This document shows positions 45,548 to 63,526 of a DNA stretch of 64,000 bases, piece by piece. The notes under the pieces were generated by a model. The model was given only the letters and a program-made list of their open reading frames with translations, was not told the DNA's origin and ran no database searches. Position 1 is the stretch's first letter, and the number at the start of each line of letters is the position of its first letter. This DNA is from an uncultured Spirochaetales bacterium (GTDB lineage: Bacteria; Desulfobacterota_D; UBA1144), in assembly GCA_964440275.1 (NCBI GenBank), contig CAYTRR010000004.1, positions 14,258 through 78,257 of the forward strand. The letters run 5' to 3'. A program made the translations under genes and the position numbers.

Positions 45548-46366
45548 TTATTTCTTATGAAATATTGAAACTTTCATATAAGGGAAAGGGACGCCTAGTA
45601 CATTAAAGATAAAACTATCTACTTTAAGATTGTAGAATATCTTACAAATTGATCCAATCATTCCATGTCTTTGTAAAAAATACTTATCCTCAGTGAGTCT
45701 TTTTAATAGCCTTTGAGGTATTTGATTGTCAAAGTTGAAATCAAAATCTTCTTGAATATATTTTTTTACATCTCTTGCTTTTATAAAATTTAATGTTTCC
45801 CAGTTTCCTGGCAAGTTCAAATCAACCTCGTATTTTCTTATTTTCTTTTCAAATATTTTGTAAGTTATATCTTTGTTGATCACAACAGGAATAATAGTAT
45901 GATTTTCGTAGGGTATATCATAGATTGGGCACATAATCACATTCGTACCACCATCTTTTAACAATGTCATCGTTTTGTCTATATAGCCTTTCCAGTCATC
46001 AACGTGCTCACATACATTTACTGAAAATATCAAATCAAATTTTGTATCATAATTAAAATCTTTTATCCACTCATTATGTACTTCGAGGTTTGTTAAAGAA
46101 TTGTAAATCTTTTCAAATTTATTGAAAGCTGACTGAAATGGTTCGACGCCAACAAACTTTTTATCTGGAAATGAGTTGCTTAGCTCATTCATCAACAAAC
46201 CGGGTCCTGATCCAACCTCAAGTATGTCTTTTACCTCAGGTCTATCAATAAACTCGTATATCTCACTAAAGCCAAAGAGCGCCTCTCTCAACAAATAAAC
46301 ATCAGCTATGCCACCTGTAAAAAGATGTGAGTATTTATTTTGTAATTTTTCGAAATCTAAATTCAT
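45548..46366 (-). CDS. Class I SAM-dependent methyltransferase
   Basis: LEVGSGPG, GVEP, FDLIFS.NVCEHV. Confidence 0.85.
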   Translation of the reverse strand: MNLDFEKLQNKYSHLFTGGIADVYLLREALFGFSEIYEFIDRPEVKDILEVGSGPGLLMNELSNSFPDKKFVGVEPFQSAFNKFEKIYNSLTNLEVHNEWIKDFNYDTKFDLIFSVNVCEHVDDWKGYIDKTMTLLKDGGTNVIMCPIYDIPYENHTIIPVVINKDITYKIFEKKIRKYEVDLNLPGNWETLNFIKARDVKKYIQEDFDFNFDNQIPQRLLKRLTEDKYFLQRHGMIGSICKIFYNLKVDSFIFNVLGVPFPYMKVSIFHKK

Positions 46367-46392: not shown

Positions 46393-47010
46393 TTAATATT
46401 TCAATATTTGATTAACAATATTTTTATAATTTGTTTCACGTAAGTTAGTTATTTTCATAACTCTCCCACCTGAACCTCTGGCTGCTTTAAGTCCTTCTTT
46501 TGAATCTTCAAGAATTAGAGCTTCTTTGCTTCTAATCTTAAATCTTTTTATTGCTTCTATATATATCATTGGATTAGGCTTTGGGGCACAATCTTCAGCA
46601 CATAAATAAAATTCTATTTCCTTAGTTAATCCTAATTTTCCTAGTACCTTTTCTACTGTTGCTCTCACACTATTTGAACAACAAGCTAGCTTGTATCCAT
46701 CTTTTTTGAGTTTTCTGAACAAATTTATTAATTTTTGACTTCTTTTTAGTCGTGAATTGATAATTCTTTTTGTATATTGTTGTTTTCTTTGATTTACAAC
46801 TTTTGCTTGATCCATACTAAAATCATGAGTTTTTGTAATAATTCTTAACTTCGATATCGTTGGCAAACTACCCAGCTTTTCAATATAGAAATTTTTTGAA
46901 ATAGAAATATCGAAATCTGATAAAGCTAAAATAAACGCTTCCTGATGCCATTTGTCTCCTGGTATTAAAACACCATCTATATCAAATATTATTGCTTTAA
47001 TTGAACTCAT
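46393..47010 (-). CDS. HAD-family phosphatase (beta-PGM/CbbY-like)
   Basis: FDIDGVL, CSNS, PKPNP, EDS..G..AA. Confidence 0.9.
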   Translation of the reverse strand: MSSIKAIIFDIDGVLIPGDKWHQEAFILALSDFDISISKNFYIEKLGSLPTISKLRIITKTHDFSMDQAKVVNQRKQQYTKRIINSRLKRSQKLINLFRKLKKDGYKLACCSNSVRATVEKVLGKLGLTKEIEFYLCAEDCAPKPNPMIYIEAIKRFKIRSKEALILEDSKEGLKAARGSGGRVMKITNLRETNYKNIVNQILKY

Positions 47011-47020
47011 GAGATTTTGT

Positions 47021-49036
47021 CTATATAGCCTCAGACATTTTGTATGACATAGATTTTAATACAAATAGTGATACTAATGCTTCTATATTTTTACCAAATT
47101 GGTAATTCTGGGACAGGATCTCATCATAATTAGGTACAGTCTCAATTAATATTCTTTGTGCATCATCAGAAGATATAGTAATTTCCTCCAAATTAATTAG
47201 AAGTTTAGATAAATCTTCACTGTAATCCCATTCTGTACTTGGAACTATTTCTTTAATCTTTTCTAATAAATCTTCAACATCCAGTGAAGAATCTATTTCT
47301 ACTTTTAGCGAGTCAATGGATTGAGTATTTGTACCATCATATGAAAAAACAATATCTGCATAATTTTTTTGTATAGAAATAAAATTTTTATAGTCCTCTG
47401 CCCTCTCCTCAATTTTTTTCTCTACAGAATCCGGTTTATAGTTTCTTTCTTTAGAGTCTCTATCAATCTTCCATTGATATTTCAAATGATCAGGAGTATC
47501 TAAAAATATAGTAAGATCCGACATGTTTCTAGTTTTAGGCAAGTAAAAAGAATGTAAGCCTGATATGAAAATAAAATCTTTGGGATTAATAGTTTTATTT
47601 GAGGTGAATTTACCAGTATCATGATCATACTCTCTTCTTTCTATAGGTTCTCCAAGTTTTAATTTTTTTAATGTTTCATTTTGAGCATATAAATAATTTG
47701 CCTTTGGATTTAAATGTGTAATGTTTTCCCAATTCGAATCATTTCTTTCCCATTTATGTTCAGCATCACCTTCTAGGTAAACTCCTGAAGATTGAATAAT
47801 ATTTTTAAAAACATTCATAAAGTATGTCTTACCTGATCCGCTATCACCTGAAATACAAATTAAAAAGTTTTGAGTCTTGTTATAAATCTTGTTACTTTTA
47901 ACACCTTCTGAATATATGACATACATCATTGACAACAAGGCTACTTCTAAAAAAGTGAAAATTATATCATTTAAAACTGGAACATTGATTTTAGTATTTA
48001 GGGGATTGTTTAAGAAAATAATGTCTACTATCTGATTATTGGAATGGAAGAAGATAAAATAAATTAAATACAATGAATTAAGTAAATAGAAAATGAGTGT
48101 GTATGCAGATTTTCTGGTAAAACTAATTGATGAATATTTAATTGCTATAACAGAAACAAAAGGCACTATCCACACATACCATCCAGGTCGTGGAGAGATT
48201 GTAAAAATGAGCAAAGCAAATGCAAGAGCTAGGTAGCTATCTAGAAGGTCAGAATTTATTTTCTGATAATAAGCAAATCTTACATATATTATCGAGAGTA
48301 AAAATAAAGTTATAAAGATGTTAAGCCCTTCTCCAAATGCTAAAGAAAGTGAGAAAAATAATGATTGTGGTTGGTTAAATAGCACCAAAGACTGGAAACC
48401 ATCAGAGTATATAAATGGGATGTTCATTATAAAATATATAAAAACGAATATAAATAAGTACGTAAGAGTTTCCTGAATTTTGTAATTCTTAAGGATATAA
48501 ATAAAAATAAGTGGTAAAACGACTAAGACATTTAGCTTGGTTGCACAAGCTAAGCCTATGAGAAGCGAGGAATATGTCAGTTCATGTTTCTTAATAAAGT
48601 AAATAGATCCAAAAAGAAGCATGATTGGAAATAGATCCAGTTGAGAATGAATGTAGCAAGCATAAAGAATTATAGGAGAGCAGAAATATAAAATAATTAT
48701 TTCTTTTCTTCTGTTGGGCAACAACTTATTTAAAAAATATAAAATTAATAAATCACTGACAAGTGTGGGAATTTTAAAAAATAGGTTTGATAAATAGTAG
48801 TTATCTATATTCATCAAATATGCAGGTAGATAAAAAATGCTGTATATATACAACATTAATGAATGATAAGGAAATTCAATATTAAGAGAGTTGTCTAAAA
48901 CATAAGTCCAAGGATTACTTAGTGTTTTAAGAAAAATCTCTATAAACGGAAGAAAAAAGGCCTCTTTATATTCCGAAGAAAATAAAGCTAGCAAGAGAAC
49001 CTTTATAAATACAATAGATAAAAGCAGTGGTCTCAT
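47021..49036 (-). CDS. Fusion of a GT-C-like membrane domain and a phosphoribulokinase/uridine kinase-like domain
   Basis: N-terminal ~380 aa multi-TM with FPY, SP....HSQLD, ATK, PGWYVWIVPF; C-terminal SGDSGSGKT, THLNPKAN, YDHDTGKF, GLH, WKIDRD..ER, QKNYAD. Confidence 0.8.
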   Translation of the reverse strand: MRPLLLSIVFIKVLLLALFSSEYKEAFFLPFIEIFLKTLSNPWTYVLDNSLNIEFPYHSLMLYIYSIFYLPAYLMNIDNYYLSNLFFKIPTLVSDLLILYFLNKLLPNRRKEIIILYFCSPIILYACYIHSQLDLFPIMLLFGSIYFIKKHELTYSSLLIGLACATKLNVLVVLPLIFIYILKNYKIQETLTYLFIFVFIYFIMNIPFIYSDGFQSLVLFNQPQSLFFSLSLAFGEGLNIFITLFLLSIIYVRFAYYQKINSDLLDSYLALAFALLIFTISPRPGWYVWIVPFVSVIAIKYSSISFTRKSAYTLIFYLLNSLYLIYFIFFHSNNQIVDIIFLNNPLNTKINVPVLNDIIFTFLEVALLSMMYVIYSEGVKSNKIYNKTQNFLICISGDSGSGKTYFMNVFKNIIQSSGVYLEGDAEHKWERNDSNWENITHLNPKANYLYAQNETLKKLKLGEPIERREYDHDTGKFTSNKTINPKDFIFISGLHSFYLPKTRNMSDLTIFLDTPDHLKYQWKIDRDSKERNYKPDSVEKKIEERAEDYKNFISIQKNYADIVFSYDGTNTQSIDSLKVEIDSSLDVEDLLEKIKEIVPSTEWDYSEDLSKLLINLEEITISSDDAQRILIETVPNYDEILSQNYQFGKNIEALVSLFVLKSMSYKMSEAI

Positions 49037-49094
49037 AATTTTAGATTTATTCTACTCATAAATACTGGATTGATAAAGTTTTTTTATACTTAAA

Positions 49095-49123
49095 TTGGAA
49101 AAGTGAATATTATTTGATATCAT
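49095..49123 (+). promoter_or_regulatory. Putative sigma70 promoter for the aldolase-NTase-GT2 operon
   Basis: TTGGAA (49095-49100)-N17-TATCAT (49118-49123) with extended TG; ATG 10 nt downstream. Confidence 0.4.
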
Positions 49124-49133
49124 CAGTCCTAAT

Positions 49134-50216
49134 ATGAATAAAAAGAAAAACTTAATTAGAGATTTGTCATACATATCGAAGCTTTATGGCTCTATGCCTG
49201 AGATTGTTCAGTCTGGGGGAGGAAATGTATCTGCAAAATCAAAAGATGTTATGTTGATTAAATCTTCTGGTATTGGACTTTCTGATGTTTCAAGTAGCCG
49301 AGAATTAGCAAAAATTAATTTAAAAGGCTTTTCAAAACTCTTCAATACTAAAATGCCAAGTAGTATTTTTAAAAATAGAATTGAGAGAAAAATATCTAAA
49401 AATACTCTTAACTTAAAAGTTCCTTCAATAGAAACATCCATGCATATTTTTTTAGATAATTATGTTCTACATACACATCCGACTTCTATCTTGTCTGTAG
49501 TTGCAAATAAAAACGCAAAAAAGAATCTTGGGTTAATATTTAAAGATTTTCATCACGTAGTAATAAAGTATAAAAATCCAGGGATATTGCTTGCGCAAGA
49601 AATATACAAACAAATAGAACTTTATGAAAAAAGTAATGGTATTAGGCCAAAAATAATTTTTTTACTTAACCATGGTCTTATAGTTCATTCTCATGATCCT
49701 AATGAGTTGATAATATTGCAAGAAACAGTACTAGATAGAGTAAATGCATTTTTAAAGATTTCAGATGATGGACGAGTTAATCAATTAACTTTATTTGCTT
49801 TAATAAATGGGCAATCAGAAAAAGATGAAATTAATATAGTTTTCAAATCCAATATCAACCTATCTAATTATGTAAAAAATAGGAAGAGACTTAAAACTAA
49901 CAAAAAAGTATCATTTTTTCCCGATAAAGTTGTATATTGTGATGATGAAATATTTGTTATAGAAAAAAAAGAAGATATGGTTAAGCTAATTAATCATTAT
50001 TTAAAAAATAAAGTTTTTCCAAGAATAATAATAATTAATGACACTATATATATATCAGCTAAGAATTTATCTAAAGCAAGAGAAGTCGAAGATGTCTTTA
50101 GAGCCCACTTAGAAATACTTCTAAGAAATCCAGAGAAGTCTCTTGTTGAACTAACAACAAAAGAGGTAAATTTTTTAAAAAATTGGGATGCTGAGGAATA
50201 TAGGAAAAAGATTTAA
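49134..50216 (+). CDS. Class II aldolase/adducin-family protein
   Basis: GGGNVSAK, KSSG, PSIETSMH, HTHP, LNHG (Zn ligands). Confidence 0.87.
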   Translation: MNKKKNLIRDLSYISKLYGSMPEIVQSGGGNVSAKSKDVMLIKSSGIGLSDVSSSRELAKINLKGFSKLFNTKMPSSIFKNRIERKISKNTLNLKVPSIETSMHIFLDNYVLHTHPTSILSVVANKNAKKNLGLIFKDFHHVVIKYKNPGILLAQEIYKQIELYEKSNGIRPKIIFLLNHGLIVHSHDPNELIILQETVLDRVNAFLKISDDGRVNQLTLFALINGQSEKDEINIVFKSNINLSNYVKNRKRLKTNKKVSFFPDKVVYCDDEIFVIEKKEDMVKLINHYLKNKVFPRIIIINDTIYISAKNLSKAREVEDVFRAHLEILLRNPEKSLVELTTKEVNFLKNWDAEEYRKKI

Positions 50217-51856
50217 TGCAAATTGTTGTTCCAATGTCAGGAATCGGTAAACGCTTTAGAGATGCGGGCTATACGACTCCGAAATATCTTATCGAGGTTG
50301 AGGGGAAAAAAATAATAGAACACATTATTTCGCTTTTTCCTGGTGAAGAAAACTTTATTTTTATTTGTAATCAAGAAGATGTAAATAAAACCAGCATAAA
50401 GGAAATATTAAAATTAAATGCTCCTAAGCATCAGCTAAAAATCATCAAATCTCATAAAAAAGGTCCAGTTTTTGCTGTTAAGCAAATATTTGATGAAATA
50501 AATGATGAAGATGAAGTCATAGTTAACTACTGTGACTTTGGCACATACTGGGACTATAATGATTTTCTTAAACATACTAGGGATAGAGATGCTGATGGTG
50601 CTGTAGTTGCTTATAAAGGTTTCCATCCTCACATGATCAAAAGCCCTAACTATGCTTTTATAAAAGATAAAAACCAATGGTTGCTTGACATTAAAGAAAA
50701 GGAACCCTTTACTGACAACAAGATGAATGAGTATGCATCAAATGGCACATATTATTTCAAAAGAGGTAAAGATATTAAAAAATATTTTGACCAATTAATG
50801 GATCAGGACTTAAATGTAAACGGAGAATATTATGTCAGCATGGTTTACAAACTAATGGCTGAAGACGCTCGTAAAGTCTCTGTATACAAGATACAACACA
50901 TGTTGCAATGGGGTACTCCTGAAGATTTAGAAGATTATCTCAAATGGTCCGAGATCTTTGCTGATTTAAACAAGACAAAACATTTCAACAAGATTGAAAA
51001 CTGCGTAAAGATAATTCCTGCTGCTGGTGAAGGTAAAAGATTCTATGATGAAAATTATGATTTACCTAAACCATTAATAGATGTTTCTGGCTATCCGATG
51101 GTCTTACAAGCATCCAAAAGCTTGCCGGAATGTGAGGAAAACTGTTTAATTCTAAGATCAGAACACATTAAAGATTACGAACTTAAAGAGTTTTATGATT
51201 TTGAAATAATAAAGCTAGACAAACTTACTGAAGGACAAGCAATAACATGCTCTATTGGCTTAGAGAAATATGATAGCAAAAAGTCCTGTTTGATAGCCTC
51301 TTGCGACAACATTATACTATTTGATCAATCAAAACTAGAATTTCTCTTACACGAAAAAAATGCTGACTGCATAGTATTTACTTCTAAACCAAACAATAAA
51401 GCATTGTCTAGTCCAGAAATGTTTGGATGGGTAAATAGTAGCGATAAAGGTGAGATCTTTGAAGTAAAAGTAAAAGAAGAATTATCTAGCAATCATGAAA
51501 AAGGATTAGTAATTTTAGGTATTTTTTATTTTAAAAATATTGAATTGTATTCCAAAATATTACAAGAACTCATAAAAAACAAAATTAAAGTTAATAACGA
51601 ATACTATATTGATTCAATGGCTTTATTTTTGGTTAACCAGAATATGAATATTTATAGTCTAGAGATAAATAATCATATTTCTTTAGGTACTCCGGATGAA
51701 TATAAAACATTTACATATTGGCAATCTTATTTCAATAAAAACACAAATCATCCTTACAAGTTTGAAAATGACATATTTTTCAATAAAAAAAAGAAAGATG
51801 AATTTTTAGATAGAGAGAAATCTTTCAAACAAGACCACATAGGTGTCATGGATTAA
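50216..51856 (+). CDS. Tandem two-domain sugar-phosphate nucleotidyltransferase-like protein
   Basis: Domain 1: PMSGIGKRF..GY..PK, NYCD, EKEP, NGEYYV, WGTPEDL. Domain 2: PAAGEGKRF..Y..PKPLI, TEGQA, SCD, NNEYYI, LGTPDEY. Confidence 0.85.
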   Translation: MQIVVPMSGIGKRFRDAGYTTPKYLIEVEGKKIIEHIISLFPGEENFIFICNQEDVNKTSIKEILKLNAPKHQLKIIKSHKKGPVFAVKQIFDEINDEDEVIVNYCDFGTYWDYNDFLKHTRDRDADGAVVAYKGFHPHMIKSPNYAFIKDKNQWLLDIKEKEPFTDNKMNEYASNGTYYFKRGKDIKKYFDQLMDQDLNVNGEYYVSMVYKLMAEDARKVSVYKIQHMLQWGTPEDLEDYLKWSEIFADLNKTKHFNKIENCVKIIPAAGEGKRFYDENYDLPKPLIDVSGYPMVLQASKSLPECEENCLILRSEHIKDYELKEFYDFEIIKLDKLTEGQAITCSIGLEKYDSKKSCLIASCDNIILFDQSKLEFLLHEKNADCIVFTSKPNNKALSSPEMFGWVNSSDKGEIFEVKVKEELSSNHEKGLVILGIFYFKNIELYSKILQELIKNKIKVNNEYYIDSMALFLVNQNMNIYSLEINNHISLGTPDEYKTFTYWQSYFNKNTNHPYKFENDIFFNKKKKDEFLDREKSFKQDHIGVMD

Positions 51857-51862
51857 CAAGTA

Positions 51863-52588
51863 ATGAGTAAACAAAACGAAAAGTACAAATTTTCTATTGT
51901 TGTGCCTTGTTACAACGAAGAGAAAAATATACCTATTCTTGTAGAGAGATTTAAAAATTTTATAGAAAATGAAAACATATTAATAGTATTAGTTAATAAT
52001 GGTTCTAGTGATGGATCTAAAGCTTTAATTGAAGACCTTGTGAAAACATATAATTTTTTAACTTTTGTTCATATAGAAAAGAATATTGGTTATGGCCATG
52101 GGATAATTACAGGCTTAAATGCTTGCGAAACTGATTTTATAGGGTGGACACATGCGGATTTGCAGTGCAAGCCTGAAGATGTAATTAAAGCAATAAAAAT
52201 GATAAAAGAAGCAAATTATTCTGAAGATGTTTATGTCAAAGGAAGAAGAAAAGGAAGGCCTTTGATGGACACATTCTTCACTGTGGGTATGAGCATGTTT
52301 GAAACTTTGTACTTTCGCAAAATACTTTATGATATCAATGCTCAGCCTAACATATTTAGTAGAAAGTTTTTTAAATCCTGGATGAATCCTCCAGAGGATT
52401 TCTCTCTTGATTTGTATTCATTGTACTTAGCCAAGATACAAAATATAAAGATTAGAAGATTTGATGTTACTTTTCCTCCTAGGATACATGGTGAATCAAA
52501 ATGGAATACCGGTTTCGAATCGAAAATAAAATTCATCAAAAGAACCCTCTTGTATAGTTTAAAATTAAAAAAAGAACTGAAGAAGTAA
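51863..52588 (+). CDS. GT2 glycosyltransferase, DPM-like with HAD in place of DxD
   Basis: VPCYNEE, NNGSSD, GYGHGI, GWTHADLQ, RIHGESKW. Confidence 0.87.
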   Translation: MSKQNEKYKFSIVVPCYNEEKNIPILVERFKNFIENENILIVLVNNGSSDGSKALIEDLVKTYNFLTFVHIEKNIGYGHGIITGLNACETDFIGWTHADLQCKPEDVIKAIKMIKEANYSEDVYVKGRRKGRPLMDTFFTVGMSMFETLYFRKILYDINAQPNIFSRKFFKSWMNPPEDFSLDLYSLYLAKIQNIKIRRFDVTFPPRIHGESKWNTGFESKIKFIKRTLLYSLKLKKELKK

Positions 52589-52963
52589 TCATTTTTTAAA
52601 AACCCAGAATTTCTGGCCTATAAAATTGACTATTGTCGAAGTTCCAGTAGCAAGCAGAAAAGCTATAAGTATTTTGTGATCAATAAAAGCAAAAGTTTCT
52701 AGAGACACCTGGTTAATGCTTACATTAAGGAAAAGTGTAAAAGTGTATAGCAAGGAGAACTTAATTAGTCTTGTCCTAAGTAAATCTGAAACAGCAAATG
52801 TTAACTTTCTGTTCATAAAAAAATTAAATAGTGCACCAGCAATAAATCCACATACTTTAGAAAGATTTATTGGTATAAAAGATAGTAGCAAGATATAAAC
52901 TAAGTAGTCTATTAAAACTCCGGTAGAGCCAATAATAAGAAAATATATAATTTGTTTATTCAT
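52589..52963 (-). CDS. GtrA-family lipid-linked monosaccharide flippase
   Basis: 124 aa, 4 TM, F..IG, NFFMNRKLTF, NFIGQKFWVF. Confidence 0.9.
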   Translation of the reverse strand: MNKQIIYFLIIGSTGVLIDYLVYILLLSFIPINLSKVCGFIAGALFNFFMNRKLTFAVSDLLRTRLIKFSLLYTFTLFLNVSINQVSLETFAFIDHKILIAFLLATGTSTIVNFIGQKFWVFKK

Positions 52964-53013
52964 CTCATCAAATCGTAAATAATTTTAGATAGTATAGACT
53001 AATCCATTATATT

Positions 53014-53622
53014 ATGAATACATTATTGATTGCTCATAGAATAAACTCTTCAGAAGAATTGGCAAAAATACCCACAGATTCAGGCGTTGAAATAGATTTA
53101 AGAGATTCAAATAAAGGCTTAATATTAAACCATGACCCTTTTTCTAGTGGTGAATCATTAGAGAATTTCATCTCTAACTATAATCATAAAACACTAATCC
53201 TTAATATAAAATCTGAGAGAATTGAATATGATGCACTTAAAGTTTTAGACAAATATAAAATTGATGATTACTTCTTTTTAGATTCATCTTTTCCTATGCT
53301 TATAGAATTATCTAACAATGGTATTACTAACATTGCGGCAAGAATCTCAGAATACGAGAGCATAGAATCTATTAGTCTAGTTTCCAATAGAGTTAGTTGG
53401 ATTTGGCTAGATTCATTTAATGGTTTCTATTTGACTAAAAACGATGCTACTCAAATAAAAAAACTTAATTTAAAAACTTGTTTAGTTTCTCCAGAACTTC
53501 AAGGAAGGCAAGAAGAGATAGAATCCTACTCTTCACAATTGAAAAGTATTGGTTTAGACGTAGATGCCATATGTACTAAATTTCCAAATTTTAATAGATG
53601 GTTGGACTATACTAATTCTTAA
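53014..53622 (+). CDS. PLC-like/GDPD-fold phosphodiesterase
   Basis: IAHRIN, GVEIDLR, HDP, LNIK, WIWLDSF, VSPELQ, ICTK. Confidence 0.75.
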   Translation: MNTLLIAHRINSSEELAKIPTDSGVEIDLRDSNKGLILNHDPFSSGESLENFISNYNHKTLILNIKSERIEYDALKVLDKYKIDDYFFLDSSFPMLIELSNNGITNIAARISEYESIESISLVSNRVSWIWLDSFNGFYLTKNDATQIKKLNLKTCLVSPELQGRQEEIESYSSQLKSIGLDVDAICTKFPNFNRWLDYTNS

Positions 53623-55295
53623 TTTTTATAATAATCTGGTGCGAAAATCCTAAAGTTGTCAACAATTTTTATATAATCCGAGTCTTTTCGATTACGCTTG
53701 ACAGCTTCCCAAAGTTCATCGTCTTCAAAATAATAAATCGAATCTAAATCATAGGTGGCACTTAGTATCGATTCTCTTAAATTCTTCTTAATAACTTTTT
53801 CTTTTTCTAAGTCTCTTCTAGAGAAATATCCAAAATTAGTAATCATATTATTGTTTGAAGCATAAAGTGCGAGTGGAAAATAATTCTTTGGTTTGTTTGT
53901 CGGTAAAACATACTTTATTTTTTTATATTTAATTGAAAAAGATTTCCATACAGGATCTTTAATTGGATTTGTCCATTTTGCAGTTCTTTCCCAGTGGTTG
54001 TCGAAGTTAACCATTCTGTTTCTGATAGCATCAGTAGCTAAACCAGTATCATAAATTTGTAATAAAAATAAGGCAATAAGCAAATACCTCAATTTCTTAA
54101 TAGATATACTTTTGATTAGTACATAAAAAGTACCAATATAGATTAAATAATATACTGGCCATATAAATCTTGCGGATGATCTAAATAAATCAGCAACCCA
54201 TTCGAAGAAAAAAGGAACAGGATATTCAAACAATACAGTATTTCCAAAAGATATTATATTAGAAACAGCAAAGATGAAAAGCAACGCGGACATCATGATT
54301 AATGGCAAAAAGTAACTTCTATTTGCCGATACATTATTTTTAAAAAACAAAAAGAATATGGCTATCAGACTTGAAATAAGCACCCCTATTCCAGGAAAAG
54401 CAAAGCCTTCGTAGTCTCCATGGGTATGAACAGGAGGTGAAGGTAAATCTGGGATTATTCTAGAATGAAGTTCATATAAAGCTTTTGGATCAAAAAAAGA
54501 ATTCAAATTCATTTTATAAAATCCAAAGCCTCCTTCTTGCAATCCCATTCCGACTGAGAAATAGCCTAACAACCACATTGTCAATATTAATATTGTTCCT
54601 ACCGAGAAAAAAACTTTGAAAAGATTTAAAATTGTATCTTTTTTTTGTAAATAGATTCTGAGTAAAAATATTGTAAAAAATATAAAAATCATTATAAAAA
54701 GATAGACATTTATTAAAACACTCAAGATTAGTAAAATTATCCACTCTTTATAATTAGTTTTATTTAAAGAATAAAGAAAGATCGCGCCAAGTATTAACCA
54801 TTGTGAACCAATGGCAGGTTGTGCAAATATTCTCATATAAAATATTGGTGCAAATAAGAAAAACAAAGTTACAACGGAACAAATTACTAAATCATTTGTA
54901 TATAAACGTGTTAGCCTAAAAGCAAATATTGAATGAAGAATATTAGAAATTAAAATCCATAACCCAAAATACTGAAAGTTGTTGGGTAAAACTTCAGCAA
55001 ATGGTTTAAACAACAATCCTAAAAGTGGTATGGAGTCTGTATGGACTAGAGATATATTAAGTCCTTCGCCATATGAATTATTTGCTAGAAGTGGGAACTG
55101 GAGAAATGAAGAATTTCTGAAGAAATTCCATCCTAACCAATGGGTTTCTAAATCACTATTGGATACACCAGATATGAACCAATCAATATTTGTAAAACTC
55201 AAATAGTAAAAACTTGTTCCGGCTATATAACACATAGAGAAGAGCCCTAGCGCTATTGGAATAAGTAACTCTAAATTTAAAAAATGTTTTCTCAC
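53619..55295 (-). CDS. DUF6311-like multi-TM protein, paralog 4
   Basis: DLETHWLGW, TDSIP, FQYFG, MNLNS, GDYEGFAF, FRSSARFIWP, NFGYFSR. Confidence 0.75.
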   Translation of the reverse strand: MRKHFLNLELLIPIALGLFSMCYIAGTSFYYLSFTNIDWFISGVSNSDLETHWLGWNFFRNSSFLQFPLLANNSYGEGLNISLVHTDSIPLLGLLFKPFAEVLPNNFQYFGLWILISNILHSIFAFRLTRLYTNDLVICSVVTLFFLFAPIFYMRIFAQPAIGSQWLILGAIFLYSLNKTNYKEWIILLILSVLINVYLFIMIFIFFTIFLLRIYLQKKDTILNLFKVFFSVGTILILTMWLLGYFSVGMGLQEGGFGFYKMNLNSFFDPKALYELHSRIIPDLPSPPVHTHGDYEGFAFPGIGVLISSLIAIFFLFFKNNVSANRSYFLPLIMMSALLFIFAVSNIISFGNTVLFEYPVPFFFEWVADLFRSSARFIWPVYYLIYIGTFYVLIKSISIKKLRYLLIALFLLQIYDTGLATDAIRNRMVNFDNHWERTAKWTNPIKDPVWKSFSIKYKKIKYVLPTNKPKNYFPLALYASNNNMITNFGYFSRRDLEKEKVIKKNLRESILSATYDLDSIYYFEDDELWEAVKRNRKDSDYIKIVDNFRIFAPDYYKN

Positions 55296-55372
55296 CCGAT
55301 GACCTAATAAATATTTTTATAATATTAACCTAATTTCGTATAGAATATAGATTAACAACAAGAGCTTTAAAT

Positions 55373-57445
55373 ATGAAAATTATAGGTAAAATCAATGAAA
55401 AGTGGCCTAGCTCCAACTTAATAAATGCTTTAATCTTAGCTTCATTATCTCTGATTATTAGTTTTTTCTGCACAACACCCTTCTATGAAACTACAGATGA
55501 TCCTTTATATAGAATGATTTCTACTGGGGATTTCAATTCTTATGTTGGCCCAGATTCTCATGTAAATTTTACTTATTATCTATATCTAGAATTTTTAATT
55601 TATCTAAAAGAAATAATAAATTTTAATTACTTTTGGGATTTATGTAATTATTCCCTTGCTTTTTTAGGAATATTCTTATTATTTTATAAACTTCTTGAAT
55701 TAAATAATAAAAATATTAAATATTTATTAATAGCTTTAGCTATAATACATTTTCCGAGCTACTTTATAAGTTTTCATTTAACTAAAGTTTCTGGATTGCT
55801 AGTTGTTTCTGCATTTTTGGCTATGATTCATCTTCTCAGAACAGAAATAAAATATAATAAATCTTTGTATATAAACATATCAATAGTTTTAGTTTGCATA
55901 TTCCTATGTTCTATCACTAGACTTAAAGCTCCTTTGTTGTACCTGCCTACATTAATATTTTGTTCTATACCTATTTTGCTCACCAACAATTATTCTAAGT
56001 TGAACAAGTTCGTAAGACTCTCATTCATGGCTATATTCTTAATACTATTATCGAGTTTCTCAGTTTCATTGTGGAATTCTAATATTACATTTTATTCAAA
56101 TTCTCCAATTTGGAAAGATTTCTATAGCTACAATGACAATAGATATCAACTTATGGAATATAATAATTTCAGAGACACAAAGAAATACTTAAATATATTC
56201 TCAAATCAAATTGATATTCCAAGTAATTTGACAGAAGAAAATAAAATTAATTTAATTGTGGAGAGCTACAAACATAGACAATTAACGTTCTATGGATCAG
56301 ACAAATTAAAAGAGATTTGTTATAAATTAGGAGGAAAAGCCGATGATTGTTCCTATTCACCGGATAATCGTGAATCATTAATAGATAAAATTCTCTCTCT
56401 CAAAATTAACACTCTTAAAACTAGTGATAACAATTTATCAAAAGAGTTCCTTAAGTATAACTATCTAGAAAAAATTGATAGTAAAATGAGGGATGTTGGA
56501 TTTAGTTTTAACGACTATGTTGTGATGGAACATTGGTATTTTTTTGATAAAAAAGTTTTTTCTAAAGAGAAGCTAGCTACAGTTGTAAATAATTTAAATG
56601 TAAACAACTTCAGCAAACAGTTCAATCAAAGATTGAAATATTCTCTTGTAAATTTCGACAATTCCTTAAAAAAACAGTTTCCTATTGGTTCAACAAATCT
56701 TTATTTAATATTGTCAGTACTTCTTATTGGAGTATTGGGGTTTTTATTAACATCCAATTTTAAAAATATTTCTTATTCTATATATTTAGTACTATCACTT
56801 ATAGTCTATTGTACTTTTATTGAGAATTACATAAAACCTCTTCCAAATTGGATATATTTTCCAACTATTACTATTTTGCTGATATCACAAATCTTTTATT
56901 TGTCTTTGGGACAGACTATAAAAATCAGTGCAGAAAAAAAACAAATAGCTTTGTTACTTGGTTTAATTTTTGTAGCTCTTAGTAGTCAAGTGCTAGTAAA
57001 AGATTTCAACAAATCTGCTGCCACCTTGAAAAACCGACTAGTACTAGAAAGTTTTATTGGTCATCCTAGGATAGCAGATAAAATTATTGTTAATGTTGGT
57101 GCTCATATACCGGCCGGTGATTGGTGTGTACCTTTTCAAGATTGCCATATAAGGAAAACAACTAAAGTTACAGGATTAGGATGGACTACACAAATGGGCC
57201 ACGATTTAATTTTTTATAAAGAAAACAAGATTGACAATTTAGCTTTAGAATTGGTTAATGACAATAGGTTTCTTTTAGCAATTGATCTATATCCATTGCT
57301 TGAAAATAGATTGCAAAAATACTACAAAGAACATTATTCATGTTCAGTGGTTTTTGAAAATTACGATTTTGCTCCAAGAGAAGAAGCTGGCAGGTACAAC
57401 CTTTATACAGTCAAAAGTTCAGATAATTGCGAACACAAGAATTAG
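55373..57445 (+). CDS. Multi-TM membrane protein with an N-terminal acidic motif, putative GT-C glycosyltransferase
   Basis: FYETTDDPLYRMISTG after TM1, about 12 TM segments, large extracytoplasmic loop. Confidence 0.55.
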   Translation: MKIIGKINEKWPSSNLINALILASLSLIISFFCTTPFYETTDDPLYRMISTGDFNSYVGPDSHVNFTYYLYLEFLIYLKEIINFNYFWDLCNYSLAFLGIFLLFYKLLELNNKNIKYLLIALAIIHFPSYFISFHLTKVSGLLVVSAFLAMIHLLRTEIKYNKSLYINISIVLVCIFLCSITRLKAPLLYLPTLIFCSIPILLTNNYSKLNKFVRLSFMAIFLILLSSFSVSLWNSNITFYSNSPIWKDFYSYNDNRYQLMEYNNFRDTKKYLNIFSNQIDIPSNLTEENKINLIVESYKHRQLTFYGSDKLKEICYKLGGKADDCSYSPDNRESLIDKILSLKINTLKTSDNNLSKEFLKYNYLEKIDSKMRDVGFSFNDYVVMEHWYFFDKKVFSKEKLATVVNNLNVNNFSKQFNQRLKYSLVNFDNSLKKQFPIGSTNLYLILSVLLIGVLGFLLTSNFKNISYSIYLVLSLIVYCTFIENYIKPLPNWIYFPTITILLISQIFYLSLGQTIKISAEKKQIALLLGLIFVALSSQVLVKDFNKSAATLKNRLVLESFIGHPRIADKIIVNVGAHIPAGDWCVPFQDCHIRKTTKVTGLGWTTQMGHDLIFYKENKIDNLALELVNDNRFLLAIDLYPLLENRLQKYYKEHYSCSVVFENYDFAPREEAGRYNLYTVKSSDNCEHKN

Positions 57446-59208: not shown

Positions 59209-59293
59209 GTACTAATTATGCGCAATGTGAAAATAAAATCCACTTAACCTAGTTTTGGAAATTCTACAAAAATCTTTTACTATTCATTTCAAT

Positions 59294-60979
59294 ATGAAAA
59301 AAGATTTATTAATGGTTGGTCTCATATCTATACTATTATTTTTTATTATTACTGGTGGTTCCATCATTAATCCTCAGCATATTGATTGGTTAATATTAGG
59401 TAAAAAACAAATATCAGATAATGAATCCTATCTAATTGGTTGGTTGTTTTTTAAACAAGCACCTTTATTACAATACCCTTTTTTATTGCTACCAAAATTA
59501 GGTGAAGGTCTACTTCTAACTCTGGTTTATACCGACTCAATTCCATTAATGGCAATACCTTTCAAAATATTTAGAGATTTTATTCCTTTTGATTTTCAAT
59601 ATTTTGGATTCTGGATTTTTTCTTGCTTTCTACTTCAAGGAATTTTTTCTTATCTAATTTTAAGCAGATTTATAAAAAACAGAGTACCGACGATACTTGC
59701 TACTACATTATTTTTGATAGCACCAGTTTTTCTTTTTCGTTTCCAACTGGGCCATTTCGCTCTTTTGGGTCATTGGATTATATTAGCAAGTATTTTACTT
59801 TACTGTTGTAGAACATTTAGTATGAGGAAATGGCTACTTGTAATAATTGTTTCGTTGCTTATACATCCATATATTTTTACAATGGTAGCTGTATTGTTTG
59901 GTTCAGATATACTTCAGAGACTTTTAAAAAAAGAAAACTCCCTTAAGATTATTGTAAATTCATTAATTTCTATCCCAATAATAATATTATCACTTTTTGT
60001 GTTTGGTCATATCGGAACCACTGATGTATCAAGTTTAGAACTTTTTGGAGGGTATGGTCATTTCAAAATGAACCTTTTATCAATCATAGATCCAGAGTAT
60101 GACTTACTAGGTAATGAAATTAGTTGGTCAAAAGTTCTTCCAGACCAAGACAATCAACATTGGTCTAATACTTTTGCAGACTACGAGGGTTTTAATTATC
60201 TAGGTATTGGCATAATAATTCTTCTACTATTCGTTTTGGCAAAAAGTTTATCTTTGAATATTGTTAAATTATTTATAGATAAAAAGTCTTTCTTTCTTCC
60301 ATTAACACTTGTCTCTTTTATGTTTTTCTTTTTTGCGATTTCAAATAATATTACTATTGGTGAACATTTGTACTTTAGATATGAGATTGAAGGAGAGATG
60401 CTATTCTTAGTCAATGTATTTAGGGCATCTGGAAGATTTTTTTGGCCTGTTTATTATTTGATATATTTATTAATTATCATACTTTTTATAAGAAATTATA
60501 CTCCTAAACAAGTCACTATAATACTTTCAGTAATTATACTTTTTCAATTATATGATACTTCTCAAGCATTTATAGATATAAATAATCGACTTAACAATAA
60601 AGACATGGTGAAGAAAAAATGGTCTATGGATTTACAAGATGATTTTTGGAGTACGCTTCCTAAAAGATACAAAAGAATTGTTTATGTATTCCCACATACT
60701 CAACCCAATAATTCATTCGACTTGCTTTATTATGCTGCTAAGAATGATCTTTCTACAAACTTTGGGTATTGGTTTAAAGATACAAGAACGTTCTATAATT
60801 CAGAAAAGGAACGACTGACTAAACTGATACAAGAAAACAATTATGATAAATTTTCAATATATTATATCGAAGATGAAAAAATATGGGAGAATGTATTGAA
60901 GAACAAAAAACCAAGTGATTTAGCGAGGAAAATTAACGGATACAATATTCTTGCACCTAATTATTATCCGGAAAGTTGA
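59294..60979 (+). CDS. DUF6311-like multi-TM protein, paralog 5 (start probably ATG 59294)
   Basis: DNESYLIGW, TDSIP, FQYFG, GHFALLGHW, DYEGFNYLG, FRASGRFFWP, NFGY. Confidence 0.75.
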   Translation: MKKDLLMVGLISILLFFIITGGSIINPQHIDWLILGKKQISDNESYLIGWLFFKQAPLLQYPFLLLPKLGEGLLLTLVYTDSIPLMAIPFKIFRDFIPFDFQYFGFWIFSCFLLQGIFSYLILSRFIKNRVPTILATTLFLIAPVFLFRFQLGHFALLGHWIILASILLYCCRTFSMRKWLLVIIVSLLIHPYIFTMVAVLFGSDILQRLLKKENSLKIIVNSLISIPIIILSLFVFGHIGTTDVSSLELFGGYGHFKMNLLSIIDPEYDLLGNEISWSKVLPDQDNQHWSNTFADYEGFNYLGIGIIILLLFVLAKSLSLNIVKLFIDKKSFFLPLTLVSFMFFFFAISNNITIGEHLYFRYEIEGEMLFLVNVFRASGRFFWPVYYLIYLLIIILFIRNYTPKQVTIILSVIILFQLYDTSQAFIDINNRLNNKDMVKKKWSMDLQDDFWSTLPKRYKRIVYVFPHTQPNNSFDLLYYAAKNDLSTNFGYWFKDTRTFYNSEKERLTKLIQENNYDKFSIYYIEDEKIWENVLKNKKPSDLARKINGYNILAPNYYPES

Positions 60980-60983
60980 AACA

Positions 60984-61838
60984 ATGAGTAAAAACGATCG
61001 TTCAATTTATACATGCATTGATGATTATGGTTTAGGTCTTGTGCACAATGAAATAATTAGAAAAATTGTAGAGACCGGCGTAATCTCCGGGGTAACAACA
61101 TTTGTTGGTATGAAAAATTTTCAGAATGAAGCTACTGCTCTCAAAGCATTATTGAATAAAACTAATTTTCAGATTGGTCTTCATTTGGATTTTATTGAAT
61201 TTTTCCCTTTTATGAAAGAATCTAGATACCTATCGTCAGATACCTTTTGTACAATTTTCTTAATTTTTCAATCACTGGGTCTTTTGAATAAAAAATCGAT
61301 TACTGAGTCTATTGTTAAACAATTAGATATATTCCAAAAGTCTTTTGGGCAATTGCCTGATTTTATTGATGGCCATTACCATTTACATCAAACGAAGGTG
61401 CCTTGTGACATTTTAATACATATTTTACAAGAAAAAGAATTTGCAGGCTGGGTTAGGTCTACTTCTATGCATTCAGAGCTAAATAACTTATCTATTGTAA
61501 ATAAAATTAAAAAAAGATACTTAAGTTTAATTGGAATGAAAGCGCAGGAAAAAATATTAAAGAATTTTAGAACTAATTTAAGTTTTGTCGGATATACAGA
61601 TTTAAATTCCAACAATGAATACGTTAAACAGCTAAATAATCAACTGGAATTTGTAACTGGACCTACCCTATTCATGCTTCATCCTGGGTCCTCAAAAGAT
61701 GACAGTCAAATTAATAGTCATGATTCCCAAGCAAGAGATTTAGAAACAGAATGGATACTTAATGAACTCCAAAATAAATGCAAAGAACTAAATTTAAATA
61801 TAATAAAGGATTTTGACAATCTATGGATAAAAACATGA
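60984..61838 (+). CDS. YdjC/ChbG/HpnK-family carbohydrate deacetylase (start probably ATG 60984)
   Basis: DDYG, GLHLD, PDFIDGHYHLH, MLHPG, R..E. Confidence 0.87.
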   Translation: MSKNDRSIYTCIDDYGLGLVHNEIIRKIVETGVISGVTTFVGMKNFQNEATALKALLNKTNFQIGLHLDFIEFFPFMKESRYLSSDTFCTIFLIFQSLGLLNKKSITESIVKQLDIFQKSFGQLPDFIDGHYHLHQTKVPCDILIHILQEKEFAGWVRSTSMHSELNNLSIVNKIKKRYLSLIGMKAQEKILKNFRTNLSFVGYTDLNSNNEYVKQLNNQLEFVTGPTLFMLHPGSSKDDSQINSHDSQARDLETEWILNELQNKCKELNLNIIKDFDNLWIKT

Positions 61839-63526
61839 AGTCGCTTACTACGATACTTATCACTTCAATCATTTTCTTTATATATATAACCGGGGGTAGT
61901 GTTTTATATACTGAAAACACAAGCTGGATATTAAACTCCTATTCAATTGATTATAAGCAACATTGGATTACTTGGTTGTTTTTTCAAGGGTCACCATTTT
62001 TACAAATACCTATAACAGACAATTTTAATTATGGAATGCAATTATCAACTACTCTATCTGTGAACGATGCAATTCCAATAATGGCATTGATGTTCAAATT
62101 GATACAACCAATCTTTGAGCTTCCAAGTCAGTATTTTGGGATATGGATTTTTGTATCTATTTCTCTTCAATCACTTTTTTCTTATAAACTTTTAAAAAAG
62201 TTTATAAACGATAATTACTTATGTTTAATTTTTAGTATTTTTTTTATAATCTCTCCTATTTTGCTTCATAGATTGTCATTAGGCCATACTGCAATGTTTG
62301 CTCATTGGCTAATACTTGCTAGTTTTTATCTTTATTTTTCAGAAACAAAAAAAATATATCTTTGGATAGGAATAATATTGTTATCACTTTTTGTTAACTC
62401 CTACATAGCTTCTATGGTTTTACTTATTTTTATTGCTGATTTTTTCAAAATCTTTTTAAGAAATAAAAATAGAGTTGCCTTAAAAGACTACGTATTTTTT
62501 GCTTTAATCATTTTTTCTTTTTTTATGTCGTTGCCTCTCATTGGTTTAGATATAAATGTATCTGAATACTACAAAGGTGGTTTTGGCAATTACAGATTCA
62601 ACCTCATTTCTTTTTTTGATCCTAGTCCGACAAATTGGTATCATGTCAGTTCGTGGTCTAATATTGTTCCGAATCTCCCCGGCGAGAAGAGTCATCTTTC
62701 TGGTGACTATGAAGGATTCGCATTTCTTGGTATAGGTGTACTAGCTTTATTGCCAGCTTGTATTTTTTATGTAATTAAAAATTACAAGGGCTCTTTCAAT
62801 AAAGACTACGTGCCCTTGATAGTTATATCTATAATACTTTTCTTCTACTCTCTTTCTAATAATATAATTTTTGCAGACATTAATTTATTTGAATATAACG
62901 TACCTAATATAGTCGATAGCTACACACATTCGCTAAGATCATCAGGTAGATTTATTTGGCCTGTTTACTACTTAATTTACTTATTTATTTTTGTAGTATG
63001 TTGCAAATATATAAACAATAAAATTTTAAGGTACTTAATAACATTCCTTCTTTTATTTCAATTATATGATTCTGCGAACGCTGTACAAACACTAAGAAAC
63101 TCTTTTGCTAGAACTCAAGTGGTCACAAAATCTGAATGGAAACTTTTCATGAAAGATTACATATGGGAAGAAATGGCTAAAAAATATAAAAACGTCCGAG
63201 TAATAATGCCTAATGGTTTTCCATCGAAACAATATTTTCCTATTGCTTTGTTTGCTGCAAGGAATTCTATGAAAACGGATTCAGGCTACCATGCTCGTTT
63301 TGACATTAATAAAATGTCTCAATATCAAGAGGATGTAAAAAAAGAAATAAATGAGGGTGCTATTAAAAATACAGATTTATACTTCTTTGTTGAATATGAT
63401 GATAAGAGACTAGACTCTCAAGCTGTAATTCTATGGGAAAAGATAAATAGTAATAAGGATATCAATGATTTCTCAGGTGTTGTCGATGGATTTAAAGTAT
63501 TTGCGCCAAATTTCTTTTTAAAGTAA
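61835..63526 (+). CDS. DUF6311-like multi-TM protein, paralog 6 (start probably ATG 61835)
   Basis: DYKQHWITW, NDAIP, QYFG, GHTAMFAHW, GDYEGFAFLG, LRSSGRFIWP, SGYHAR. Confidence 0.75.
   Translation: MKSLTTILITSIIFFIYITGGSVLYTENTSWILNSYSIDYKQHWITWLFFQGSPFLQIPITDNFNYGMQLSTTLSVNDAIPIMALMFKLIQPIFELPSQYFGIWIFVSISLQSLFSYKLLKKFINDNYLCLIFSIFFIISPILLHRLSLGHTAMFAHWLILASFYLYFSETKKIYLWIGIILLSLFVNSYIASMVLLIFIADFFKIFLRNKNRVALKDYVFFALIIFSFFMSLPLIGLDINVSEYYKGGFGNYRFNLISFFDPSPTNWYHVSSWSNIVPNLPGEKSHLSGDYEGFAFLGIGVLALLPACIFYVIKNYKGSFNKDYVPLIVISIILFFYSLSNNIIFADINLFEYNVPNIVDSYTHSLRSSGRFIWPVYYLIYLFIFVVCCKYINNKILRYLITFLLLFQLYDSANAVQTLRNSFARTQVVTKSEWKLFMKDYIWEEMAKKYKNVRVIMPNGFPSKQYFPIALFAARNSMKTDSGYHARFDINKMSQYQEDVKKEINEGAIKNTDLYFFVEYDDKRLDSQAVILWEKINSNKDINDFSGVVDGFKVFAPNFFLK

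Follow-up and report, generated by a model that had tools for sequence, protein, structure and literature searches.

A conserved, mobile gene cassette with a putative ribulose-bisphosphate-derived sugar-donor pathway and a Gtr-like delivery end

We analyzed a 64,000-nucleotide stretch of DNA from an uncultured Spirochaetales bacterium (GenBank assembly GCA_964440275.1, contig CAYTRR010000004.1, positions 14,258 to 78,257; hereafter called the window), in which seven contiguous genes at positions 46393-53622 are one copy of a widespread, conserved, mobile and patchily distributed cassette. Judging from the homologies of the encoded proteins, this cassette probably supplies a sugar donor derived from ribulose bisphosphate, the sugar of which would be attached via a lipid carrier. 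As a whole, it would be a three-component Gtr-like module for surface-glycan decoration that brings its own precursor pathway from ribulose 5-phosphate. We know of no route by which a ketopentose such as xylulofuranose is activated for glycan synthesis, and the cassette is a concrete candidate for one, being widespread, plasmid-borne and present both in giant-virus contigs and in culturable, named strains.

A conserved cassette of seven genes

Genes were called from a listing of open reading frames (ORFs) and from Pfam and NCBIfam family scans of the window proteins. All seven contiguous ORFs claimed in a first-pass annotation of this DNA were found, together with the following domains and gap.

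46393-47010, minus strand: HAD-IA hydrolase (PF13419, E 1.4e-23), beta-phosphoglucomutase-like, in the position of the cassette phosphatase
47021-49036, minus strand: GT-C/kinase fusion of 671 amino acids (aa) (PF00485 at residues 392-568, E 4.3e-34)
47882-49036, minus strand: GT-C fold glycosyltransferase domain, fusion residues 1-385 (profile, AlphaFold and Foldseek)
47021-47881, minus strand: phosphoribulokinase-type kinase domain, fusion residues 386-671 (PF00485, E 4.3e-34)
49037-49133, no strand: divergent intergenic region of 97 bp, flanked by the kinase and aldolase arms
49134-50216, plus strand: class II aldolase-type Zn enzyme, 360 aa, with a conserved C-terminal extension of about 150 aa (PF00596, E 4e-12)
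50216-51856, plus strand: NT2, tandem sugar-phosphate nucleotidyltransferase (NT), 546 aa (PF00483/PF12804 in two stretches, residues 9-184 and 266-389)
51863-52588, plus strand: small soluble GT2, 241 aa, probable polyprenyl-phosphate glycosyltransferase (PF00535, E 7e-23)
52589-52963, minus strand: GtrA-family small polytopic membrane protein (PF04138, E 5.2e-19, 69 bits against a cut-off of 26.1)
53014-53622, plus strand: P202, 202 aa, minimal phosphodiesterase of the GDPD/PI-PLC fold (glycerophosphodiester phosphodiesterase/phosphatidylinositol-specific phospholipase C), cytoplasmic (AlphaFold and Foldseek)

The gap at 49037-49133 does separate two divergent arms, as had been annotated. 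The four sigma-70-like matches in it (two per strand, against 2.1 ± 1.3 in shuffled sequences) are unremarkable for AT-rich DNA and lend no added support to its designation as a promoter region.

The metagenome sample comprised the best 80 of 466 confirmed NT2 loci, to which one genome locus was added (81 loci; loci and genomes are numbered with L and G, respectively). The window proteins were mapped onto these loci, all ORFs were clustered, and partners were counted wherever the flanks of NT2 reached at least 4.5 kb upstream and 3.5 kb downstream (32 loci). The sampled loci are not independent, and the gene maps of L001 and L030 are identical. NT2 was accompanied by the kinase in 30 of the 32 loci (27 fused to GT-C and 3 soluble), by P202 in 30, by the aldolase in 28, by the HAD protein in 28, by GT2 in 27 and by GtrA in 17. 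The quartet of kinase, HAD, aldolase and P202 was complete in 26/32, and two loci (L056 and L078) contained none of the partners. In L081 and L082, a protein adjoining the kinase (279/289 aa) was binned as an aldolase by a length cut; the L081 protein is 35% identical to the cassette HADs in an alignment, and the L082 protein is a candidate HAD.

The usual layout, GT-C/kinase-HAD-aldolase-NT2-GtrA-GT2-P202 on a single strand, recurs colinearly in unrelated contigs, and the order in the window, with GtrA inverted and the HAD-kinase arm divergent, is a lineage-specific rearrangement of it. NT2 was present in 2 of 120 genomes sampled from the window's phylum, namely the window genome and one from a different genus (G006), and in 1 of 18 other genomes of the window's family. 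G006 has the rearranged layout of the window, including a methyltransferase, the unusual HAD, a DUF6311 protein, a 690-aa protein and the divergent gap; the identities between the two genomes are 51%, 56%, 55% and 46% for these four proteins, respectively. Because the set recurs colinearly in unrelated contigs and in this other genus, the grouping is beyond chance. The first-pass annotation had staked its proposal on co-occurrence across genomes, and the same set indeed recurs, mostly colinear, in the metagenome loci.

Parts of the cassette are also joined into single proteins: GT-C with the kinase in 45/81 loci, HAD with the aldolase in 5 and P202 with NT2 in 7. NT2 has more than 3474 homologues (among 8000 scored candidates), which are about 50% identical across phyla and come from sources labelled Campylobacterota, Methylococcales, Pseudomonadota and Dadabacteria. 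Complete cassettes were found on three plasmids: an Escherichia coli IncR plasmid, plasmid p5 of Azospirillum brasilense MTCC4039, where the cassette adjoins a wzm/wzt-type ABC transporter pair, gmd and GT1/GT4 genes, and pHbal01 of Hirschia baltica. Many cassettes include one extra polytopic membrane protein of variable family and position, one of which matches PMT_2; an acceptor-specific transferase would be expected to show such a profile.

The kinase, HAD and aldolase as putative first steps

The kinase domain matched the phosphoribulokinase (PRK) family NF005655 at E 2e-49, with 168.5 bits against a cut-off of 236 and with only the N-terminal 195 of 326 profile positions aligned. The PDB structures closest to it are PRKs of cyanobacteria, plants and a methanogen (E 4e-28); a uridine kinase matched at E 4e-8. 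In the alignment with Synechococcus PRK, D424 falls on the Asp of LDDYH and H472 on the His of YNHETG; these two residues, along with K523, R526, D527 and R531, are near-invariant in 30 homologues. The K-x-x-R-D-x-x-x-R block and the H/R after the catalytic Asp, which we take to bind the 5-phosphate of ribulose 5-phosphate in bacterial PRK, are kept here. An Asp/His dyad is catalytic in PRK (PMC9978339). In step 1 of the proposed pathway, which homology supports, the cytoplasmic PRK domain would phosphorylate C1 of ribulose 5-phosphate, or of a close ketopentose 5-phosphate, to give the 1,5-bisphosphate.

The usual cassette HADs are nearest to ribulose-1,5-bisphosphate (RuBP) 5-phosphatase: 25/26 matched NF053830 at E ≤ 1e-10 (best, 1.4e-53), and the score printed for one of them is 160 bits against a cut-off of 330. 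The haloarchaeal NF053830 enzyme is RuBP-specific, yields ribulose 1-phosphate and is encoded in one operon with a class II ribulose-1-phosphate aldolase (PMC9700705). In step 2, likewise supported by homology, the HAD protein would take off the 5-phosphate to give a pentulose 1-phosphate. The HAD of the window is presumably the sole one of the 26 that does not match NF053830 at that threshold. Its closest NCBIfam family is TIGR02009/bPGM, below the cut-off; NF053830 was absent among its top 25 families; and its matches to the other cassette HADs were weak (20-30% identity in tblastn and blastp). This HAD may act as a phosphatase or as a mutase, and in both cases the 1-phosphate could still be formed; it could also remove another phosphate.

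The proposal that kinase and HAD together give a ketose 1-phosphate therefore gains support from the PRK-nearest kinase and from the usual HAD, whereas the HAD of the window is of a different type. For the cassette as such, the sequence ribulose 5-phosphate to RuBP to pentulose 1-phosphate can be inferred on good grounds because of the kinase and HAD homologies and the precedent of phage UDP-arabinofuranose synthesis.

The aldolase-type enzyme matched PF00596 with 46.8 bits against a cut-off of 22.2. Invariant in 26 sequences are G29-G30-N31-S33, E100 (SIE), H113/H115 (H-x-H), H180 (NHG) and W351/E354/R357, which, by analogy with FucA and AraD, would include the Zn-binding His triad, the catalytic Glu and the phosphate-binding GGN-S. 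The nearest NCBIfam families are the aldolase halves of rhamnulose-1-phosphate aldolase/SDR (dehydrogenase) proteins, and PDB 3m4r matched at E 2e-10. Because the aldolase is absent from the otherwise complete cassette L001/L030 and is fused to HAD in the viral form described below, it is more likely a tailoring or epimerising step on pentulose 1-phosphate than the source of the carbon skeleton. Of the two sources of ketose 1-phosphate offered by the first-pass annotation, the kinase/HAD pair is thus favoured over the aldolase, which is dispensable in L001/L030. The branched-chain sugar that had been considered as another product was rejected, since the cassette contains no C-C branching enzyme and can do without the aldolase. 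In step 3, the aldolase-type enzyme would set the configuration, most likely as a retro-aldol/aldol epimerase, converting for example D-ribulose 1-phosphate to L-xylulose 1-phosphate.

Kinase, HAD and aldolase could instead be a catabolic or salvage shunt that leads from ribulose 5-phosphate through RuBP and ribulose 1-phosphate to dihydroxyacetone phosphate and glycolaldehyde, as in haloarchaea, with only NT2, GT2, GtrA and P202 serving glycan synthesis. The HAD and the aldolase do resemble two enzymes of the haloarchaeal pathway, which likewise lie in one operon (PMC9700705). However, the kinase is physically fused to GT-C in more than half of the loci, plasmids and giant-virus glycosylation islands carry all the parts as a set, an ATP-spending cleavage of pentose would be out of place in a glycan island, and the cassette aldolase belongs to a different, rhamnulose-1-phosphate-aldolase-like branch. 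We consider such a shunt very improbable.

NT2 and P202: a possible shift of the phosphate

NT2 consists of domain A (approximately residues 1-250), which matches PDB 4evw over residues 3-244, and domain B (approximately residues 260-500). Each domain has a G-x-G-x-R motif and a Lys that are invariant in 26 sequences (G9, G11, R13 and K23 in domain A; G271, G273, R275 and K285 in domain B); by analogy with RmlA and GlmU, we take these to be the nucleotidyltransferase signature and the catalytic Lys.

P202 matched no Pfam or NCBIfam family at E 0.01, and a search with its profile gave no significant PDB sequence match. Its AlphaFold (AF2) model had a predicted local distance difference test (pLDDT) value of 96.9, and the ten best Foldseek matches, as well as most of the others listed, are GDPDs (E 1.5e-6 to 1e-4; TM 0.6-0.73). 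This agrees with the earlier label of a PLC-like phosphodiesterase, and RefSeq labels the plasmid homologues from E. coli, Azospirillum and Hirschia as GDPD/PI-PLC-like superfamily. H8, R9, E26, D28 and H40 are invariant in 34 homologues, a pattern (H-R / E-x-D / H) that presumably corresponds to the catalytic and metal-binding set of GDPDs. P202 has no hydrophobic segment and no secretion signal. The family comprises 352 clusters at E ≤ 1e-30. Ten fused representatives carry, besides P202, nucleotidyltransferase domains (3, with P202 at either end), GT61 (3), GT2 (1) or a part with no family (3). A prediction of a complex between NT2 and P202 scored 0.00 and is uninformative either way.

In step 4, NT2 and P202 would convert the non-anomeric 1-phosphate to a nucleotide-linked glycosyl donor. 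A nucleoside diphosphate (NDP)-1-pentulose cannot be a glycosyl donor because C1 of a ketose is not anomeric. We tentatively prefer the cyclic-phosphate route already put forward in the first-pass annotation, and hold it to be possible rather than probable. Domain A of NT2 would make the NDP-1-pentulose (step 4a); P202, using the adjacent 2-OH, would expel the nucleoside monophosphate to leave a 1,2-cyclic phosphate and then a 2-phosphate (step 4b); and domain B would make the NDP-pentulofuranose (step 4c). GDPD and PI-PLC enzymes act on a phosphodiester beside a free hydroxyl, and RNA 3'-phosphate cyclase follows a parallel activate-then-cyclise logic.

The cyclic-phosphate route gives every conserved part a role, and the P202-NT2 fusions fit it. 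That P202 is also joined to GT61 and GT2, and that it directly follows GT2 in most loci, fits less well; P202 may act with or after the transfer step, which makes a position between the two activations tentative. It is conceivable, with the odds against it, that the cassette encodes a route, the first of its kind, to a ketopentofuranose (ribulo- or xylulofuranose) in nucleotide-activated form, in which the phosphate is moved from C1 to C2 and then re-activated; the 1-phosphate would be made first because a ketose is not directly phosphorylatable at its tertiary anomeric carbon. If this phosphate-shift chemistry is real, it would be a new way to make a glycosyl donor.

The fusions and the place of P202 also bear on another explanation, in which pentulose 1-phosphate would be transferred from NDP-1-pentulose as a phosphodiester-linked substituent, as in teichoic acids. 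In that case P202 would work at or after the transfer step, as a phosphotransferase or an uncovering enzyme, and the task of the second NT domain would be to activate a different, ordinary sugar for GT2. Phosphodiesters are the substrates of GDPD-fold enzymes, and P202 has joined glycosyltransferases on its own account (three GT61 and one GT2 representative). Nevertheless, GT2 and GT61 are glycosyl transferases and not phosphotransferases, the cassette has no source of a second sugar phosphate, and both NT domains co-evolve as one protein, conserved as described above across phyla. We therefore judge a phosphodiester-linked product unlikely.

A Gtr-like delivery end

A hydropathy scan showed nine hydrophobic stretches within residues 1-370 of the kinase fusion. 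The profile of this domain, built from 30 homologues, matched GPI mannosyltransferase 1 at E 5e-7. Its AlphaFold (AF2) model had a pLDDT of 94.6, and the top Foldseek matches were GPI-MT-I, ALG3, ArnT, PimE and ALG6, all of which use polyprenyl-phosphate sugars. D134 and K167 are invariant and D95 is near-invariant; Pfam GT87 matches remained sub-threshold, in 11/30 homologues. The GT-C domain that had been annotated as fused to the kinase is thus genuine by both profile and fold.

The NCBIfam families nearest to the GT2 of the window are ArnC and PgfS, and those nearest to its homologue in L018 are dolichyl-phosphate hexose transferase and PpgS, all far below the cut-off. GT2 contains no hydrophobic segment and is without a C-terminal membrane anchor. 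GtrA usually lies just upstream of GT2 on the same strand, the window being an exception by inversion. In step 5, GT2 with GtrA would move the sugar to undecaprenyl phosphate and to the outer face, and in step 6 the GT-C domain, perhaps with neighbouring variable membrane proteins, would transfer it to a periplasmic glycan. The delivery end of GT2, GtrA and GT-C described in the first-pass annotation is Gtr-like in composition, with a true GT-C member and a GT2 that is a probable polyprenyl-phosphate transferase.

A soluble variant in giant-virus and other viral contigs

A second architecture is found in six metagenome loci and in about ten viral contigs, several of them labelled giant-virus metagenome-assembled genomes. 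In it, the kinase is soluble (460 aa), HAD and aldolase are fused (about 590 aa), P202 is fused to NT2 (about 740 aa) and a GT61 protein is present, but GT2, GtrA and GT-C are missing. It follows that the biosynthetic core consists of the five soluble activities, with a product usable by a Leloir-type transferase; because the viral version pairs the soluble enzymes with the Leloir enzyme GT61, the cassette product should be a nucleotide sugar.

Several further features were seen in viral contigs and variant loci. The soluble kinase of the variant has an N-terminal domain of about 215 aa with no Pfam or NCBIfam match (L061, L073, L077, L079 and L085; L095-L109), and among the genes around it are a GT47+GT2 fusion and one resembling asparagine synthase. 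Of 80 viral contigs retrieved, 56 (among L115-L174) have a beta-phosphoglucomutase-like HAD, the type seen in the window, immediately ahead of a single-domain protein related to NT2 domain A. In the one locus examined for it (L124:9365-10714), that HAD and the NT domain form a single 449-aa ORF, and the cluster also contains GT2, GT11, GT10, a CMP-sugar synthetase-like gene and a radical SAM/SPASM gene.

GT61 enzymes include arabinofuranosyl- and xylosyltransferases. The GT61 of the viral variant would thus suit a product that is the nucleotide sugar of an aldopentofuranose (arabino- or ribofuranose), for which pentulose 1-phosphate would be isomerised to an aldose 1-phosphate and activated once, leaving a side role to the second NT domain and P202. 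Phage UDP-arabinofuranose synthesis uses a similar logic of kinase, HAD 5-phosphatase and nucleotidyltransferase (PMC13326640), and three-component systems, for which Gtr and a mycobacterial system are the prototypes (PMC11127046), commonly add pentofuranose side chains. Against such a product, the kinase is PRK-like, directed at ketose C1, and no anomeric aldose kinase; no MtnA- or R15P-isomerase-type isomerase was found in the cassette; and the strict conservation and fusion of the two NT domains and P202 would be left unexplained. An ordinary aldopentofuranose is hence an improbable product. Even if it were the product, a Calvin-cycle-type kinase fused to a GT-C domain would be an unusual link from central metabolism to the envelope.

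Identity of the sugar and evidence from hosts

Returning to a ketopentose product, several neighbourhoods are suggestive of a pentulose: the gmd gene and ABC transporter beside the Azospirillum cassette, the frequent methyltransferases, and the soluble core in giant-virus contigs. In Yersinia enterocolitica O:10, L-xylulofuranose decorates a D-rhamnan; a glycosyltransferase is presumed, and a gene for xylulose biosynthesis is not named in the available part of that paper (PMC11380512). Chlorovirus N-glycans contain xylulofuranose, sometimes methylated, of undefined absolute configuration (PMC9614988). If the ketopentofuranose pathway is true, it would supply the missing xylulofuranose donor of bacterial O antigens and giant-virus glycans.

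Several observations weigh against the overall reading of the cassette as the source of a RuBP-derived sugar donor whose sugar is attached via a lipid carrier. The matches of kinase and HAD to NCBIfam families all fall under the curated cut-offs, and the window's own HAD is unlike the RuBP 5-phosphatase type. The aldolase is missing from L001/L030, and P202 is fused to glycosyltransferases besides NT2 and follows GT2 directly in most loci. Among 5426 complete E. coli genomes, two contained the cassette in a nucleotide search, which diverged copies could escape, and both had it on a plasmid of approximately 33 kb. The chromosome of the one carrier checked has wzx/wzy annotated as O35-type, as against the xylulose-bearing types O95/O97. 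No organism known for a pentulose glycan was shown to carry the cassette, the link to E. coli O95/O97 being pursued at the nucleotide level.

A link between the cassette and E. coli O95/O97 was thus not shown by the nucleotide searches, and the overlap with known xylulose-glycan loci that the first-pass annotation had looked to did not emerge in E. coli, the one species covered. The O-antigen cluster of the plasmid-carrying E. coli (NZ_CP145714.1 1801616-1822412, L178) is annotated as O35-type, and three IS903B copies interrupt it around rfbBDAC.

Surroundings of the cassette in the window

The source genome is approximately 0.98 Mb with approximately 29% G+C, and the surroundings of the cassette are a large surface-glycan island with several GT2s, a DegT aminotransferase, a dTDP-glucose-dehydratase-like and RmlA-like pair, and methyltransferases. 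The following genes flank the cassette.

45548-46366, minus strand: class I S-adenosylmethionine (SAM) methyltransferase (Pfam Methyltransf_23/12/25), adjoining the HAD gene, outside the core cassette
53619-57445: two polytopic membrane proteins, a DUF6311 protein of 558 aa on the minus strand (PF19830, E 5e-58) and a 690-aa protein on the plus strand

The methyltransferase is possibly an accessory enzyme for O-methylation of the sugar. Methyltransferases are frequent in cassettes, and those of other copies are unrelated to that of the window (TylF-like in one, another in Hirschia). The DUF6311 and 690-aa proteins are candidates for the variable, acceptor-specific transferase. Six paralogous DUF6311 polytopic proteins (approximately 560 aa each; PF19830, E 1e-42 to 1e-58) lie in one 32-kb stretch of the window, at 31713-36745 (three in tandem), 53619-55295, 59255-60979 and 61823-63526. 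Such a concentration is unusual for a genome of about 1 Mb and suggests a battery of acceptor-specific periplasmic transferases. The 690-aa protein (55373-57445) has approximately 11 hydrophobic segments and no family match; as given above, it is conserved in G006. A B12-binding/radical SAM gene is found near the cassette both in the window (63537-63998, cut by the window end) and in a Bacteriovoracaceae locus (L001:14749-16095); it may encode a C-methylating tailoring enzyme, or its presence may be a coincidence.

Comparison with known systems

The two halves of the cassette compare differently with what has been described. The delivery half can be recognised as Gtr-like, with three components of which the GT2 is a probable polyprenyl-phosphate transferase, and the precursor half is undescribed in the literature searched. 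Neither this half nor NDP- or CMP-linked xylulose or ribulose donors were found described in that literature, which left subscription journals mostly outside; within it, a paper on dystroglycan was the sole source of the term 'CDP-ribulose', and one on poplar proteomics that of 'UDP-xylulose'. The earlier statement that the genes match no textbook NDP-sugar pathway agrees with this search, in which none turned up.

Pentofuranose systems based on phosphoribosyl pyrophosphate (PRPP) reportedly use a MATE-family flippase. The cassette resembles these three-component systems, as well as the mycobacterial decaprenyl-phospho-arabinose system, in that a five-carbon furanose side chain would come from a polyprenyl-phosphate donor via a GT-C enzyme (PMC11127046). 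It differs in its components, since PRPP-based systems pass ribose 5-phosphate from PRPP straight to the lipid with no nucleotide sugar (PMC11127046), whereas the cassette has a PRK, a tandem nucleotidyltransferase, a GDPD-fold enzyme and GtrA. A word search of PMC11127046 gave no occurrence of xylulose, ribulose or ketose.

O-antigen glucosylation by GtrA, GtrB and the type-specific Gtr in Shigella and Salmonella combines GtrA, a GT2 enzyme for undecaprenyl phosphate and an extracytoplasmic GT-C enzyme (PMC11127046). The cassette, a patchily distributed add-on, shares the GtrA-family protein and the GT-C fold with it and has a GT2 that should load a sugar on the same lipid. Unlike that system, which draws on UDP-glucose, the cassette carries its own five-enzyme precursor pathway; its GT2 is short (241 aa) and anchorless, and its GT-C domain is fused to a cytoplasmic kinase.

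P202 shares the TIM-barrel fold of GDPDs (PDB 3ks6, 4r7o, 7e0v, 2pz0 and 5t91; TM 0.6-0.73). In contrast to these enzymes, it has only about 200 aa, 12-18% identity, no Pfam GDPD match and no secretion signal, and is genetically tied to nucleotidyltransferases and glycosyltransferases.

The proposed early steps have parallels in three pathways. In the heptose scheme of HldE and GmhB, a bisphosphate made by a kinase loses its distal phosphate to a HAD enzyme, and the phosphate that is left is activated by a nucleotidyltransferase. In the haloarchaeal non-carboxylating pentose bisphosphate pathway, the phosphatase to which the usual cassette HAD is nearest also adjoins a class II aldolase-type enzyme (PMC9700705), and ribulose 1-phosphate is likely a shared intermediate. 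That pathway is catabolic and obtains RuBP from ribose 1,5-bisphosphate (PMC9700705), whereas in the cassette a PRK would supply RuBP, with activation and transfer of the product to follow; moreover, the cassette aldolase is of another branch and the HAD of the window is of a different type. Phage AfhE and AfhF make UDP-arabinofuranose by an order of steps like that proposed here, from sugar 5-phosphate through the 1,5-bisphosphate and, by a HAD enzyme, the 1-phosphate to the UDP-sugar (PMC13326640). The phage kinase, however, acts on the anomeric carbon of an aldose (PMC13326640), whereas PRK acts on the non-anomeric C1 of a ketose, which may be why the cassette needs a second NT domain and a phosphodiesterase.

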